From a virus (lineage: Duplodnaviria > Heunggongvirae > Uroviricota > Caudoviricetes), in IMG/VR virus record IMGVR_UViG_2537562194_000021: a DNA stretch of 5,056 nucleotides; one strand, written 5' to 3'. How positions within the stretch are numbered: the stretch's first letter is position 1; the number at the start of each line of letters is the position of its first letter. The notes under the pieces are model-generated. The model searched no databases, was not told where the DNA came from, and saw nothing but the letters and a program-made list of their open reading frames with translations. A program made the translations under genes and the position numbers. Below are positions 1 through 5,056 of this stretch, piece after piece.

Positions 1-2
1 GA

Positions 3-257
3 CCCTGGCCTTTGATTGATGGCGTCGGGCAGATTTACGGCATGTATGTCCTGACTGAAACGAATACGACCCGCTCCGAGTTTGATCGCTACGGTAAGGC
101 GAAAAAGATAGAATTTTCACTGACTCTTGAACGCTGTGATGAGGATTTGCGGGAGCGCCTGCAATCCTCATCGTTCAGTGATATGCTGTCCGGCTTCAAA
201 GATAAGGTCACATCATCCCTTAACAGCGCGGCCAGCTCCGTTAAAGGGCTGTTTTGA
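3..257 (+). CDS. C-terminal fragment of an unidentified protein, possibly a phage tail/structural protein; 5-prime end lies outside the window
   Basis: The frame is open from the window edge (codons from position 3) to TGA at 255-257; the track's start at 12 is a TTG and probably not the real start. The translation (..PLIDGVGQIYGMYVLTETNTTRSEFDRYGKAKKIEFSLTLERCDEDL..) looks like real protein and is followed by a strong hairpin terminator. The resemblance to P2 gpU-like tail proteins is from memory only and is not verified. Confidence 0.5.
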   Translation, partial: PWPLIDGVGQIYGMYVLTETNTTRSEFDRYGKAKKIEFSLTLERCDEDLRERLQSSSFSDMLSGFKDKVTSSLNSAASSVKGLF

Positions 258-264
258 TTAACGC

Positions 265-294
265 AAAACCGCTAATGGTCAGATTAGCGGTTTT
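265..294. terminator. Bidirectional intrinsic terminator shared by the convergent left gene and the invertase gene
   Basis: Perfect 12-bp inverted repeat aaaaccgctaat (265-276) / attagcggtttt (283-294) around a 6-nt loop (ggtcag). Because the arms begin with A4 and end with T4, the hairpin is followed by a U-run on either strand. The invertase stop codon (284-286) lies inside the 3-prime arm. Confidence 0.6.
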
Positions 295-883
295 CATTTT
301 CCTGAGTCTGCCTGGTTGTTTCTTCAGCCTGTATATCGCCTACAGGGTGATAACGATAAATTGTCGATATGCCGATGTCGTAAATGATCGCCAGTTGTTT
401 CCTGTCATGACCGTTTTTGATCAGCCTTGCTATTTGCTCATGCTGTTCTTTTGTCCGCTTCGGGCGACGTCCGCCTGTGCGCCCCCGTGCGCGCGCTGCC
501 GCCAGTCCGGCCAGTGTACGTTCAACAATTAATTCACGTTCCATTTCAGCTAGGGCACCCATCACGTGGAAGAAAAAACGCCCCATTGGAGAAGATGTAT
601 CTATGCTGTCGGTCAGACTGCGAAAATTAATCCCTCGCTCCCGTAGTTCTCCGACGAGAGAAATCAGATGTTTCATGCTTCGCCCAAGGCGATCCAGTTT
701 CCAGACAACCAGCGTGTCACCTTTTTGAAGCCGCTTTAAAGCGCGTTTTAATCCCGGTCGGTCTGTCTTTGTCCCGCTTAATTTATCTTCAAATATTTGT
801 TCACATCCTGCACAAACAAGAGCGTTTCGTTGCAGGTCTGTATTCTGGTCATTTGTTGATACCCTTACATAACCAATCAGCAC
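284..883 (-). CDS. Site-specific DNA invertase, serine recombinase of the Gin/Pin/Cin/Hin family (about 199 aa)
   Basis: The translation carries the family's N-terminal catalytic motif LIGYVRVSTNDQNTDLQ (catalytic Ser at residue 9, codon 857-859), the central conserved block WKLDRLGRSMKHLISLVGELRERGINFRSLTDSIDTSSPMGRFFFHVMGALAEMERELI, and a C-terminal helix-turn-helix region (RKQLAIIYDIGISTIYRY). The track begins the ORF at a TTG (899-901), but GTG at 881-883 gives the canonical M-L-I-G-Y-V-R-V-S N-terminus and is preceded by GGGAG (891-895) with a 7-nt spacer. Confidence 0.93.
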   Translation of the reverse strand: MLIGYVRVSTNDQNTDLQRNALVCAGCEQIFEDKLSGTKTDRPGLKRALKRLQKGDTLVVWKLDRLGRSMKHLISLVGELRERGINFRSLTDSIDTSSPMGRFFFHVMGALAEMERELIVERTLAGLAAARARGRTGGRRPKRTKEQHEQIARLIKNGHDRKQLAIIYDIGISTIYRYHPVGDIQAEETTRQTQENENR

Positions 884-937
884 ACTGAATCTCCCGTCCA
901 AAAGCGCAAATCATGCCATGCAGGCCGGAAACGGCCA

Positions 938-963
938 TTATCTAAAACCTCGGTTTACAGGAA
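938..963. other. Left 26-bp recombination (crossover) site for the invertase, gix/pix/cix/hix-like; predicted core dinucleotide TC at 950-951
   Basis: ttatctaaaacc-tc-ggtttacaggaa is two imperfectly palindromic 12-bp half-sites around a 2-bp core, and closely matches the gix-type sequence as I recall it. An inverted copy is at 4241-4266. It lies 55 bp from the invertase start. Confidence 0.85.
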
Positions 964-1019
964 ACGGTAAATCAGGCTTCTGGCGCATTACAGAAAAACC
1001 AGAACGGCGCAGATATTCC
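938..1019. repeat. Left arm of the 82-bp inverted repeat bounding the invertible segment
   Basis: The reverse complement of 4185-4266 matches 938-1019 with only 2 mismatches (positions 943 and 946, both in the outer half-site). Identity is perfect from 947 to 1019 and decays inward after 1019. Confidence 0.9.
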
Positions 1020-1908
1020 GGGAAAAGATACCTTCACCAAAAATATTGGGGCCTGCCGCGCATATAGCGCATGGCTGGATATTGGTGGCGATAGTCAGGT
1101 CTGGACAACCGCGCAATTTATTTCGTGGCTGGAGAGTCAGGGAGCATTTAACCATCCTTACTGGATGTGCAAAGGCTCATGGGCTTATGCAAATAATAAG
1201 GTCATTACAGATACAGGTTGCGGAAATATTTGTCTTGCAGGTGCTGTGGTGGAAGTTATTGGCACTCGCGGCGCAATGACCATACGCGTTACCACGCCGA
1301 GCACGTCCAGCGGTGGAGGAATTACTAACGCTCAATTCACTTATATTAATCATGGTGATGCTTACGCTCCTGGCTGGCGACGAGACTACAACACGAAAAA
1401 TCAACAACCTGCATTTGCTTTAGGGCAAACAGGAAGCACTGTCGGAAATGATAAAGCTGTTGGCTGGAACTGGAATAGCGGGGTCTATAACGCAAATATT
1501 GGTGGCGCATCGACATTAATCCTCCACTTCAATATGAATACGGGGAGCTGCCCTGCTGCACAGTTCCGCGTGAATTACAGAAATGGCGGAATCTTTTATC
1601 GTTCAGCGCGTGATGGTTATGGCTTTGAAGCTGACTGGTCAGAGTTTTACACCACAACCCGCAAACCCTCTGCGGGAGATGTTGGTGCATATACGCAGGC
1701 AGAATGTAACTCAAGGTTTATTACAGGTATTCGCCTTGGCGGTCTGTCATCTGTTCAGACATGGAATGGTCCCGGCTGGTCTGACAGGTCAGGTTATGTC
1801 GTTACGGGTTCAGTTAACGGAAACCGTGATGAATTAATTGATACAACTCAGGCAAGGCCAATTCAGTATTGCATTAATGGGACGTGGTATAACGCGGGGA
1901 GTATTTAA
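949..1908 (+). CDS. Silent alternative tail-fiber C-terminal (receptor-binding) cassette, Sv'-like; has no start codon and is expressed only after inversion fuses it to the constant part
   Basis: Frame 1 is open from the TAA at 943-945 to the TAA at 1906-1908. I translated 949-1164 by hand and found no stop and no ATG/GTG/TTG. The first 24 codons (949-1020, [24 protein letters not shown]) are identical to the linker of the expressed fiber. The C-terminus (..PIQYCINGTWYNAGSI) parallels the expressed fiber end (..[16 protein letters not shown]). The track's ATG at 1165 is an internal Met. Confidence 0.8.
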   Translation, partial: LGLQETVNQASGALQKNQNGADIPGKDTFTKNIGACRAYSAWLDIGGDSQVWTTAQFISWLESQGAFNHPYWMCKGSWAYANNKVITDTGCGNICLAGAVVEVIGTRGAMTIRVTTPSTSSGGGITNAQFTYINHGDAYAPGWRRDYNTKNQQPAFALGQTGSTVGNDKAVGWNWNSGVYNANIGGASTLILHFNMNTGSCPAAQFRVNYRNGGIFYRSARDGYGFEADWSEFYTTTRKPSAGDVGAYTQAECNSRFITGIRLGGLSSVQTWNGPGWSDRSGYVVTGSVNGNRDELIDTTQARPIQYCINGTWYNAGSI

Positions 1909-1910
1909 CG

Positions 1911-2444
1911 ATGATGCACTTAAAAAACATTACTGCTGGCAACCCTAAAACAAAAGAGCAATACCAGCTAACGAAACAATTTAACATCAAATGGCTTTAT
2001 TCAGAGGATGGAAAAAACTGGTATGAGGAACAAAAGAATTTCCAGCCAGACACTTTGAAAATGGTCTATGACCATAACGGCGTTATTATTTGTATTGAAA
2101 AGGATGTTTCAGCAATTAATCCGGAAGGCGCAAGCGTCGTTGAATTACCTGATATTACAGCAAATCGCCGTGCTGACATTTCGGGTAAATGGATGTTCAA
2201 AGATGGCGTAGTGGTAAAACGAACTTATACCGAGGAAGAGCAGAGGCAGCAGGCGGAAAATGAAAAGCAAAGCCTGCTACAGCTCGTCAGGGATAAAACC
2301 CAGCTATGGGACTCACAGCTACGGCTGGGCATCATTTCCGACGAGAATAAACAAAAATTAACAGAGTGGATGCTCTTTGCGCAGAAAGTCGAATCTACAG
2401 ACACTTCCAGCCTGCCAGTAACGTTTCCCGAACAACCTGAATGA
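1911..2444 (+). CDS. Tail-fiber assembly protein (Tfa/U-like chaperone) cognate to the silent cassette, currently in the silent orientation
   Basis: A 177-aa ORF starting 2 nt after the Sv' stop, with GGGGAG at 1896-1901 as a ribosome-binding site. Its first ~120 aa are roughly two-thirds identical by eye to the convergent ORF at 2473-3000 (shared MMHLKNI.., [30 protein letters not shown]), while the C-termini diverge. Confidence 0.85.
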   Translation: MMHLKNITAGNPKTKEQYQLTKQFNIKWLYSEDGKNWYEEQKNFQPDTLKMVYDHNGVIICIEKDVSAINPEGASVVELPDITANRRADISGKWMFKDGVVVKRTYTEEEQRQQAENEKQSLLQLVRDKTQLWDSQLRLGIISDENKQKLTEWMLFAQKVESTDTSSLPVTFPEQPE

Positions 2445-2447
2445 GAC

Positions 2448-2474
2448 AAGGCCCGATAGCGGGCCTTAATTTTT
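2448..2474 (+). terminator. Intrinsic terminator between the convergent assembly genes; strong in the + direction, weak in the - direction
   Basis: Hairpin aaggcccg-atag-cgggcctt (2448-2467) is followed on the + strand by aatttttatt. On the - strand the hairpin is followed by gtctcattcagg, with no U-run. Confidence 0.55.
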
Positions 2475-3000
2475 ATTCAGGCTTTTGTGGCCATTCAGGA
2501 TTTGCCGTATCCACACGGCTGACCAGAACACTGTAGCGTTCCCATGACTCCAGTCGTGCGCGTTCCTCATCCGTCGCCATATTCAGCCTGACAGCGCGCT
2601 CCAGTGGCTGAATAACGCTTTCCGCTTCGGAAAGTAACGCGGCCTTTTGTGATTCGGCCTGTTGTTGCTGCTCGTCTGCCGTATAAATCCGTTTAACTAC
2701 AGCTCCGTCCTTAAACATCCACTTACCGGAATCATCGGCCCGACGATTGGCTGTTATATCGGGGACCTCAACGACGTTAAAACCTTCAGGGTTAAGCGTG
2801 GAGGCATCTTTAGTTATGGCAACAATAATATTATGTTCATCGTAAACAATCTTTATTGTGTCTTCCTGAAAATTCTTTACCTCTTCATACCAGTTTTTTC
2901 CGTCTTCGGACCACAACCAGATAACGTCAAAATTCTTTGTTAATTCGTACTGTTTCAGTGTTTTAGCGTTACCCGCTTTAATGTTCTTTAAGTGCATCAT
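2473..3000 (-). CDS. Tail-fiber assembly protein (Tfa/U-like chaperone), expressed orientation, translationally coupled to the tail-fiber gene
   Basis: A 175-aa ORF whose ATG (2998-3000) lies 1 nt after the tail-fiber stop (3002-3004). It is a paralogue of the 1911-2444 product, with a conserved N-terminal two-thirds and a divergent C-terminus. Confidence 0.88.
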
Positions 3001-3001
3001 A

Positions 3002-5056
3002 TTAAACGCTCGCTACATTATACCAGGTGCCATTTATATACTTTTGAACTGGTCTGTAATAAACGCCAGCTATATTATCGGCAGAATTTGACCCTGTATC
3101 CTGAACATTTATACCAGACAATACATGACCTGAAGGGCACTGGAAGTTCCATGTTTGCCAGTTGTTCACACCATAATATTGCTGTGAACCAAGCCGAACA
3201 TCTTTCACATATCGGGAATCAATGTTACCCCAGTTGCTTGGTTGTATCTGACCGTTTACAGCAAATGTCACCGAGTTATCTGTATTTCGCTGACTATAGA
3301 AATGCCAGCCTGAATCATCACCAAGCTCTGCAACAGTTGGTCTTGACGAATTTCCCCACAAGTTAAATGATGCATTACGGGCAGCGGTATTTGCACTTGA
3401 AAGTGTGAATAACTTACTTTCCCCAGCCTGAATACCCTTTAATGATATTGCTGAACCATTTCTAAAGCGGAATACATGCACACCATTAGCATAAGCATCC
3501 AGCACCCCATCACCATTTTGTTTAAACCCGGTATCGTTATCTCCTAAAACTATTGAATTGCTACCCAGGGCATTAGCCGTTCCAATCCCCAGATTTCCGC
3601 TAAAAATGGCATTAATACCGAATATTGAGTGAGAACAATAAAACCCTCGCCCATTGTTAAAATCAAGAATAGCTTGTGCGTTCGTGCTTTCTGTCGCGGG
3701 ATTAGTTGCTCCCCACTTATATGTTGTTTGACCGACGGTATAATCCTGAGTTGGAACAATAACCGTTAGCCCTTCTTCAGCAGAAACCCGCACAGGAAAA
3801 GCCCTGCCTTCAACGTAAAAAACGCTGCATACATCATCTTCTTTAAGGCTTGTTACAATGGAATGGATTGCGCGCTCATTAGTCTGATACGTCGAAAAAT
3901 AACCTGCCGCATATGAACCACGATCAGTCCAGCCACCAGGCATTACCATTCCATTGAATTCGCAGTTATTCATTTCGTAATTACCACCGGCAGATGTGGT
4001 CGTTATAATCACTCTGGAAGCCAGCTCGCCAGTGCTGCCTGTGGAACGCCGGAAAATAACTGGATACCACTTTCCACCAACTGCATTAGACGGCGCATTA
4101 AATGCGTACTGCTGCATTCCTTTTTTCTTATCCACCTCGCCTTTGCTGTAAACATTAATGTTACTCAGGAAGCGATCCTTATCAGGAATATCTGCGCCGT
4201 TCTGGTTTTTCTGTAATGCGCCAGAAGCCTGATTTACCGTTTCCTGTAAACCGAGGTATTCGATAACGGCGGCAACGGTCGATTTCGCAAGAATATCCCG
4301 CCCTACTTTTGTCAGAGTTGCCAGGCTGGCGACATCATTCCCCGTAAAATACGGAAACCTGTCTGCCGCAGTAGCAAGCCCGGCCAGCGCCGTCAGGGTG
4401 GCATCTTTCGGTTGCTTACCCGCAAGCGCGTTAGTCATGGTGGTCGCAAAATTCGGGTCGTTGCCCAGCGCCGCCGCCAGCTCGTTCAGCGTGTTCAGTG
4501 CGTCAGGTGAAGAGTCTACAAGTGCGGCAATCGCGGCCATAACGAAAGCCGTGCTTGCGATTTGGGTATTATTCGTTCCCTGTTGTGCAGTTGGTGTTGT
4601 TGGCGTTCCGGTCAGTGCCGGGCTGTTTAATGGGGCTTTCTTGTTCGTTTCATCCATTACCGCCTTAACCGCTTTTGGTGTCGCTGCCAGCGTTTCAGAC
4701 GTGCTGTTGGTTGCACTGCTGAGCTGGACTATCCCTTTTCGTGCCGTCGTGGCGTCCTGAGCGGTATATTTTCCGTTAGCCAGGTCATACGCGGCCTTAA
4801 CCGCTTTCGGCGTTGCGGCCAGCGTTTCAGAATCGCTGTTAGTGGCGCTACTGAGTTGAACAAAGCCTTTTGCGGTCAGCGAGGCATCCGGGTGACGTCG
4901 TGACTGTTCATGCTCTTTCAGTTTGTCATCCACGTAATCCACTGTGGCCATCACCATGGTGTTATCCACGGTAAGCGCCACGCTGGCAGTGCTGGATACG
5001 GTTAGAATGGTGCGAAATGTTTGTGCACGTCCGGACCCCTCGGCAACGGTTGGCTT
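3002..5056 (-). CDS. Tail fiber protein (P2 H / Mu S / P1 S-like): constant N-terminal part plus the currently expressed variable C-terminal part; 5-prime end lies beyond the window
   Basis: The - strand frame is open from the window edge (5056) to TAA at 3002-3004; the track's start at 4981 is an internal GTG. The N-terminal region has the tandem [24 protein letters not shown] motifs and the [37 protein letters not shown] block that I recall from P2 H-type fibers. The crossover site lies inside the gene at 4241-4266, at ..[11 protein letters not shown]... Confidence 0.92.
4185..4266. repeat. Right arm of the 82-bp inverted repeat, lying inside the tail-fiber coding sequence
   Basis: It is the reverse complement of 938-1019 with 2 mismatches in the outer half-site. 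It encodes the 24-aa linker [24 protein letters not shown] of the expressed fiber. Confidence 0.9.
4241..4266. other. Right 26-bp recombination (crossover) site, inverted relative to the left site; predicted core at 4253-4254
   Basis: The reverse complement of 4241-4266 is ttatcgaatacc-tc-ggtttacaggaa. The inner half-site is identical to the left site and the outer half-site differs at 2 positions. Confidence 0.85.
4664..4867 (-). repeat. Intragenic tandem repeat encoding two copies of a 24-aa motif in the tail-fiber constant region
   Basis: Unit 1 (4796-4867) encodes [24 protein letters not shown] and unit 2 (4664-4735) encodes [24 protein letters not shown]. The period is 132 bp and nucleotide identity is roughly three-quarters by eye. 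Confidence 0.7.

Follow-up and report, generated by a model that had tools for sequence, protein, structure and literature searches.

A Tail-Fibre Inversion Module With bixL and bixR Sites in a P88-Like, P2-Type Prophage of Escherichia coli

The Locus and Its Source Prophage

The stretch of caudoviral DNA analyzed here (IMG/VR record IMGVR_UViG_2537562194_000021; 5,056 nt, hereafter the window) carries a serine DNA invertase gene and, next to it, a segment bounded by two inverted recombination sites that holds two variable tail-fibre cassettes, each with its own chaperone gene (Table 1). The whole window is found at 100% identity in the chromosome of E. coli O111 strain 95NR1, where the locus belongs to a P2-like prophage with the gene order of phage P88 (genus Xuanwuvirus). 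Positions 504–3064, which span the 5′ part of the invertase gene, the left site, Sv′, U′ and U, are 92–95% identical to the gin-G region of phages Mu and D108, and the silent cassette matches the G segment of both phages at this same level. As this Mu-like stretch is combined with a constant tail-fibre part (Sc) of the P2 gpH type, the module is a mosaic.

Table 1. Features of the window, with their positions, strands and supporting evidence.
Feature	Position	Strand	Evidence and remarks
3′ end of P2 gpU-type tail gene	12–257	+	ORF list, Pfam
Serine DNA invertase, 199 aa, GTG start	284–883	-	Pfam Resolvase (1.2e-50) and HTH_7 (3.9e-12); PHROG 125 DNA invertase (2e-96)
Putative Fis enhancer, homologous stretch in 5′ end of invertase gene (+19 to +90)	794–865	-	Homology to annotated P1 enhancer
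Left (invertase-proximal) site, TTATCTAAAACC-TC-GGTTTACAGGAA	938–963	+	Core 950–951; identical to published bixR; 1 nt different from Mu gix
In-frame TAA in left outer half-site; ends the frame that leads into the silent cassette	943–945	+	Translation
Left arm of exact 73-nt inverted repeat	947–1019		Arm alignment
Silent variable tail-fibre cassette, Sv′-type, 319 aa, promoterless	949–1908	+	Close homolog of the variable part of Mu S′
U′-type assembly chaperone, silent cassette	1911–2444	+	Pfam Caudo_TAP (2.7e-36); PHROG 136
Terminator-like hairpin between convergent chaperone genes	2448–2467	+	Consensus scan only
U-type assembly chaperone, active cassette	2473–3000	-	Pfam Caudo_TAP (9.8e-37)
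Active variable part (Sv) in this orientation	3002–4252	-	Continuous ORF 3002 to >5056; tail-fibre PHROGs
Right arm of exact 73-nt inverted repeat	4185–4257		Arm alignment
Right site, within tail-fibre ORF, TTATCGAATACC-TC-GGTTTACAGGAA	4241–4266	-	Core 4253–4254; identical to published bixL
Constant part (Sc), running past the window	4254–5056	-	Phage_fiber_2 repeats; annotated CDS 23002–25398 in the 95NR1 locus

The silent cassette matches residues 170–488 of PDB 8ju3_A from end to end (E 6.7e-220). This entry is the Mu “Tail fiber protein S, Tail fiber protein S-prime”, and since the alignment begins at its residue 170, the junction in the solved Mu G(−) fusion lies at the corresponding position. 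The active Sv has weak similarity to the C-terminus of Mu S (5yvq), and about 381 Sc codons lie ahead of the crossover. An initial reading of the DNA, made without database searches (hereafter the sequence-only reading), had proposed that either orientation of the segment yields an in-frame fusion; this is borne out by the annotated tail fibres of strains 95NR1 (798 aa) and 95JB1 (700 aa), which carry the segment in opposite orientations.

Several smaller features accompany these genes. Between the convergent gpU and invertase genes lies a strong hairpin flanked by runs of A and T (265–294), which, from a consensus scan only, is likely to be a bidirectional terminator. Two Phage_fiber_2 repeats in the constant part form a 96-nt direct repeat with 75% identity (4662–4757 and 4794–4889), and the 5′ ends of the homologous chaperone genes form a 161-nt inverted repeat with 72% identity (1911–2071 and 2840–3000). 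An Rfam search of the window returned no known RNA family.

The gpU end at window positions 1–257 is the right end of a block encoding sheath, tube, E, E′, tape measure and gpU (13405–20257 of the 95NR1 locus), which is convergent to the invertase gene and opposite to the baseplate and fibre genes. This arrangement is unlike the gene order of P2. Phage P88 has the same arrangement, which is therefore native to the genus. A secondary inversion of the block by the invertase was considered and rejected for the present-day element, given the shared order in P88 and a scan of the 45-kb locus that found no third gix-like site. At the far end of the block, the gene D homolog (locus 13405–14258) is 801 nt long in 95NR1 as against 1,101 nt in P88 and adjoins an annotated pseudogene fragment; from these two features, the prophage may be defective.

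Recombination Sites

Both recombination sites are of the 26-bp gix type, with a 12-nt half-site, a 2-nt TC core and a second 12-nt half-site, and each deviates from the palindromic consensus at 3–4 positions, within the range seen for gix and cix. The sequence-only reading had proposed an alignment with known sites, and this was carried out with gix, cix and pix sequences taken from the annotated records of Mu, P1 and e14 (Table 2). The window sites align as gix-type, with the inner half-site and core of Mu gix. That reading had also held that the sites are not intergenic. This is correct for the right site, which lies inside the tail-fibre ORF (minus strand, at least 659 aa), but the left site falls in no expressed gene: it occupies intergenic DNA, 55 nt ahead of the GTG codon (883) at which the invertase gene starts. 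The two differences that it had reported between the outer half-sites are real and fall at 943 (T/G) and 946 (A/T).

Table 2. Half-sites and cores of the comparison sites.
Site	Outer half-site	Core	Inner half-site
Mu gix, both sites	TTATCCAAAACC	TC	GGTTTACAGGAA
P1 cixL	CAATCCTAAACC	TT	GGTTTAAGAGAA
P1 cixR	TTATCCAATACC	TT	GGTTTAAGAGAA
e14 pix in ycfK/stfP	CTCTCGAAAACC	TT	GGTTTGGGAGAA
e14 pix beside pinE	TTTTCATAAACG	TT	GGTTTGGGAGAA

The PinB system has two published sites, bixL (TTCCTGTAAACC GA GGTATTCGATAA) and bixR (TTCCTGTAAACC GA GGTTTTAGATAA) (PMC3241671, Table 3; source GenBank D00660, Tominaga et al., 1991). Read on the opposite strand, bixL is the right site of the window and bixR the left one, with 26/26 identity in each case, so the asymmetric pair was already published in 1991. 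Phage P88 carries the same two sites as the window. An exact 17-mer scan of species-representative genomes gave 26 single matches; the taxa were unrelated and the outer flanks random, and the matches were judged to be chance (~70 expected, from 2 × 596 Gb/4^17).

The Inverted Repeat and Its Shared Coding Stretch

The sites form the outer ends of a longer inverted repeat. With the arms aligned in register (947 opposite 4257), exact inverted identity runs for at most 73 nt, and outward extension to 938 and 4266 adds 9 nt that include the two mismatched positions, giving 80/82. The 82-bp repeat with an identical inner part described in the sequence-only reading is thus reproduced, and an independent repeat finder widened the pair to 934–1035 and 4169–4270 (102 nt, 91% identity). 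That reading had allowed for an error in its manual alignment, which is excluded by a realignment that returned the same 73-nt run. By our arithmetic, the number of exact inverted matches of this length expected by chance in 5 kb is ~1e-37 (~1.3e7 position pairs × 4^-73).

Translation of both arms yields the same 24 residues (codons 949–1020, plus strand), as had been claimed, and the DNA identity stops at 1019 because the last Pro codon is CCG in the left arm and CCT in the right. These residues had been termed a shared linker. They are indeed present in both cassettes but are no conserved feature of the family, since most relatives share only ~8 residues, or 25 nt. Among 16 paired loci in IMG/VR viral contigs, the inward exact repeat measures 24–25 nt in 13, two more have repeats of 37 and 52 nt, and the 73 nt of the window are the longest seen. 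Several cassette types, distinguished by their start residues, occur beside either site in these contigs; a 24-residue “linker” is found here because both cassettes happen to be of the QASGALQ type. The sole unusual trait of the locus is how long its perfect repeat is (73 nt as against ~25 nt in most relatives).

A short G-A-D-I-P motif (GGxGCAGATATTCC) occupies window positions 1005–1019, just inside the segment, and in Mu lies just outside it, in Sc upstream of gix. Its placement exemplifies the shuffling of short tail-fibre motifs.

Invertase and Enhancer Region

Aligned with the invertase, Gin shows 81% identity, Cin 73%, Pin 77% and the P88 invertase 92%. Ser9 and the remaining catalytic-domain residues do not vary among the window protein, Gin, Cin and Pin, and residues 1–123 are those of Mu Gin but for one Lys/Arg change. 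The C-terminal HTH DNA-binding domain has diverged and is closest to that of the P88 invertase. The protein is itself a mosaic, a near-Gin catalytic domain being joined to a diverged DNA-binding domain (residues ~124–199, window 284–514), and DNA identity to Mu gin falls sharply past ~nt 360 of the gene. The protein also bears an acidic/polar tail at its C-terminus (..DIQAEETTRQTQENENR), which Gin, Cin and Pin lack. A search of NCBIfam with the invertase returned no specific family, protein-cluster names are generic only, and a simple scan of the DNA separating the left site from the start of the invertase gene detected no sigma-70-like promoter.

Within the 5′ end of the invertase gene lies a stretch whose P1 homolog is annotated as “enhancer of Cin-mediated C-segment inversion”. 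It is identical to Mu gin at 72/72 positions and to cin at 55/72, and its spacing to the site is that of Mu, with no indels between. Two matches to the degenerate Fis motif were found at 850–836 and 813–799 (sequence matches only). As in the rest of its family, the switch would be expected to depend on Fis and the enhancer.

Natural Inversion Between Genomes

A flipped version of the window was built in silico, with exchange at 950/951 and 4253/4254, and its two 701-nt junctions were used as search queries. Strain 95JB1 is identical to this construct (951–4253 inverted), with 0 mismatches over 5,056 nt; when 95JB1 is compared unflipped, the differences are confined to 1020–4184. Strains 95NR1 and 95JB1 (records NZ_CP021339.1 and NZ_CP021335.1) come from the same 1995 Adelaide outbreak and differ by this 3.3-kb flip. 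Both flipped junctions occur at 100% identity in 95JB1 and SA31-1, and at 99.0–99.9% in O103 12009, O145 RM9467-C1 and RM10425-C1, JNE120393 and O111 9662. The orientation of the window is found in the close relatives RM9872 (O145), RM9873-C1, RM12367-C1 and O111 8B. For the same cassette pair, the orientations are balanced at about 9:9 (nine records each; at least 96% identity, 96–100% coverage). The paper on the complete genomes of 95NR1 and 95JB1 (PMC6602927) does not contain the terms “inversion”, “invertase”, “tail fiber” or “tail fibre”, and inversion is not mentioned in the P88 paper. The flip between the two outbreak isolates, which is unreported, and the length of the perfect repeat are mildly new.

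Because 95JB1 is an exact flip, the outer half-site differences stay with the flanks and the exchange must lie inside 947–1019. The sequence-only reading had predicted exchange at 950–951 and 4253–4254, and these positions coincide with the aligned boundary of the Mu G segment and with the crossover annotations of P1 cixL and cixR, an agreement that rests on homology. It had further proposed sequencing of inversion junctions, for which the natural flip is an equivalent. The flip is consistent with exchange at 950–951 and places it within 947–1019, an interval of 73 nt that is too coarse to pinpoint the dinucleotide.

The same comparison bears on whether the switch is still active. If the module were a decayed relic, its two orientations would be old fixed alleles, and the shortened gene D and neighboring pseudogene fragment, which suggest that the prophage may be defective, would fit such a history. 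However, all ORFs of the module are intact, and the flip is the only difference over 5,056 nt between two isolates of the same 1995 outbreak, which makes decay the least credible of the readings considered.

Could the flip between 95NR1 and 95JB1 have arisen through the repeat itself? RecA-dependent homologous recombination across the 73–102 nt of repeat, without the invertase, would leave a product of indistinguishable sequence. At 73 nt, the perfect repeat is far longer than the ~25 nt of most relatives and exceeds the minimal length generally thought to be enough for RecA-mediated exchange in E. coli. However, the invertase is intact, its catalytic domain and the enhancer region are Gin-identical (but for the one Lys/Arg change noted above), and the two sites match published functional ones letter for letter. 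Furthermore, relatives with only 24–25 nt of identity have also flipped. Flip-related loci with just 25 identical nucleotides include L034 compared with L053 and L148 from the contig survey, and P88 compared with L060, so the long repeat is not needed for inversion, which favors site-specific over homologous exchange. Flips also recur among very close isolates, pointing to a high rate. A RecA route to the observed flip is therefore considered very improbable.

Outer Half-Site Asymmetry and the In-Frame Stop Codon

The outer half-sites are unequal, and the sequence-only reading had suggested that this asymmetry could bias synapsis or inversion rate. The first differing position is base six of the half-site, the free N of the Din consensus, at which known sites have C, G, T or A; the second is an A-to-T change also carried by the experimentally used P1 cixR. 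In a survey of IMG/VR viral contigs that share the core and inner half-site, TTATCTAAAACC was on the invertase side in 45/45 cases and TTATCGAATACC on the constant (Sc) side of the tail fibre in 65/65, where it codes for I-E-Y, and exactly this pair was present in 12 of the 16 paired loci. In cix, pix and bix the outer halves are, as a rule, unequal, with Mu as the exception.

An asymmetry tuned to bias synapsis or to set a preferred orientation would accord with the two real differences between the sites and with their strictly conserved placement. This conservation is, however, explained by ancestry and coding constraint, since the right outer half is translated and the flanks are equally conserved. 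The differing bases are a consensus N and an A/T swap already present in cixR. Identity of the two sites does not prevent inversion in Mu, nor does greater divergence in P1 (4/12 differences) and e14. As the inner halves are identical, inversion would rebuild the same two sites, and the asymmetry could then not bias direction; the ~9:9 distribution of orientations in same-cassette prophages is in line with this. With the pair fixed in the phage group, the proposed bias is unsupported and a tuned asymmetry is unlikely, although a symmetric effect on rate, equal in both directions, is possible.

The left outer half-site also contains the in-frame TAA that the sequence-only reading had described as closing the silent frame two codons before the crossover. 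Translation agrees (A-I-I-stop-N-L-G-L-Q), the stop preceding by two codons the CTC Leu codon at 949–951 that holds the TC core. Among the viral contigs, TAA is present at 45/45 invertase-side sites with TTATCTAAAACC and at 3/3 with TTATTTAAAACC. Mu has CAA at this position, and its frame into the silent S′ is open from an ATG 12 codons before the crossover (MPCVPKSTIIQNLGLQ...). When positions 1654–1700 of the Mu locus are set against window 912–951, a C-to-T change accounts for the TAA here and in P88-like phages. Selection for the stop codon is not demonstrated, because the flanks are equally conserved and Mu functions with CAA and an open frame. A more elaborate proposal is that the 73-nt repeat is no accident of cassette ancestry but is kept by conversion during inversion and allows an extra RecA flipping route that bypasses the invertase and, separately, that the TAA has been selected to hold the silent cassette untranslated where the Mu frame is open and ATG-initiated. 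We regard this proposal as a little less likely still than a tuned asymmetry.

A Two-State Inversion Switch and Its Known Relatives

The locus is very probably a two-state, Gin/PinB-type site-specific inversion switch of the Din family, carried by a P88-like, P2-type prophage. As in other Din systems, a Resolvase plus HTH recombinase with Ser9 is accompanied by two inverted 26-bp sites with identical cores, and inversion has actually occurred. As in segments of the Mu G and P1 C type, Sc lies outside and two 3′ parts with their chaperones lie inside, and both fusions are in frame. As in the B segment, the sites are bixL and bixR.

By analogy with these systems, dimers of the invertase would bind the two 26-bp sites, which would synapse on a Fis-bound enhancer in the 5′ end of the invertase gene, as deduced from Mu and P1. 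Staggered 2-nt cuts would be made at the identical TC cores, a position that rests on homology, and one half would rotate by 180 degrees before religation, inverting 951–4253. The ~381 constant N-terminal codons are located outside the segment, and the two C-terminal receptor-binding parts and their chaperones within it. Each orientation thus supplies one in-frame fibre (798 or 700 aa), probably with a different host range. The fusion is seamless because the core sits in a Leu codon within sequence common to both cassettes.

The system is already known down to its site sequences, as PinB/bix and more generally as Gin/gix. Among its closest known relatives is the PinB/B segment of Shigella (Tominaga, Ikemizu and Enomoto, 1991, J Bacteriol 173:4079; D00660), in which both 26-bp sites are identical to those of the window, including the asymmetry and the GA/TC core. 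The B segment is also ~3 kb, and cross-references to D00660 in the P1 record indicate a Mu/P1-like content of U, U′ and Sv′. Here, by contrast, the segment is 3,303 bp, the active Sv is different, the same 24 residues open both cassettes and the host element is a P88-like P2-type prophage.

The Mu G segment has the same layout, with Sc outside and Sv-U and U′-Sv′ inside, and its invertase gene likewise lies beside the Sv′ side and reads away from the segment. Mu and the window share the inner half-site and the TC core, and the left outer half-site of the window is 1 nt off, at the free position; the silent cassette, U′ and U are 92–95% identical in DNA, and the enhancer-homologous region is identical. 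Mu differs in having two sites of one sequence, set in a 34-bp perfect repeat, and in having CAA where the window has TAA; that its repeats are 34 bp long and cross over at two central bases is well established (PMC4406740). The N-terminal Sc is also of the P2 gpH type and ~381 aa here as against 169 aa in Mu, and the active Sv cassette and the DNA-binding domain of the invertase differ.

The C segment of P1 and P7, with Cin and cix, is a switch of the same type in which the outer half-sites are unequal and the inner ones shared. The outer half of P1 cixR (TTATCCAATACC) departs from the right site of the window at the free position only. However, its core is TT rather than TC, it has inverted repeats of ~0.6 kb, and cin, whose product is 73% identical to the invertase here, is oriented towards the segment. 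For P1 cix, a change in the core is reported to block inversion or to lead to localized conversion (Iida and Hiestand-Nauer, 1986, cited in PMC4406740). Phage P88 belongs to the same phage group as the window element and has the same gene order and two sites, but its exact repeat is 25 nt and its cassette pair is different. Goldberg et al. (2014; PMC4272514) used sequencing and PCR to demonstrate inversion in P2-like prophages of E. coli (EPEC E2348/69).

Implications

The value of these observations lies mainly in annotation, and they open no new mechanistic question. They place the classic Mu/P1/Shigella module, complete with bixL and bixR, in P88-like P2-type prophages, which are common in pathogenic E. 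coli. Close outbreak isolates can differ by this flip, and in genome comparisons an apparent 3.3-kb “rearrangement” at such a locus is programmed phase variation. Recognition of the module is also useful for predicting the host range of prophages or tailocins.
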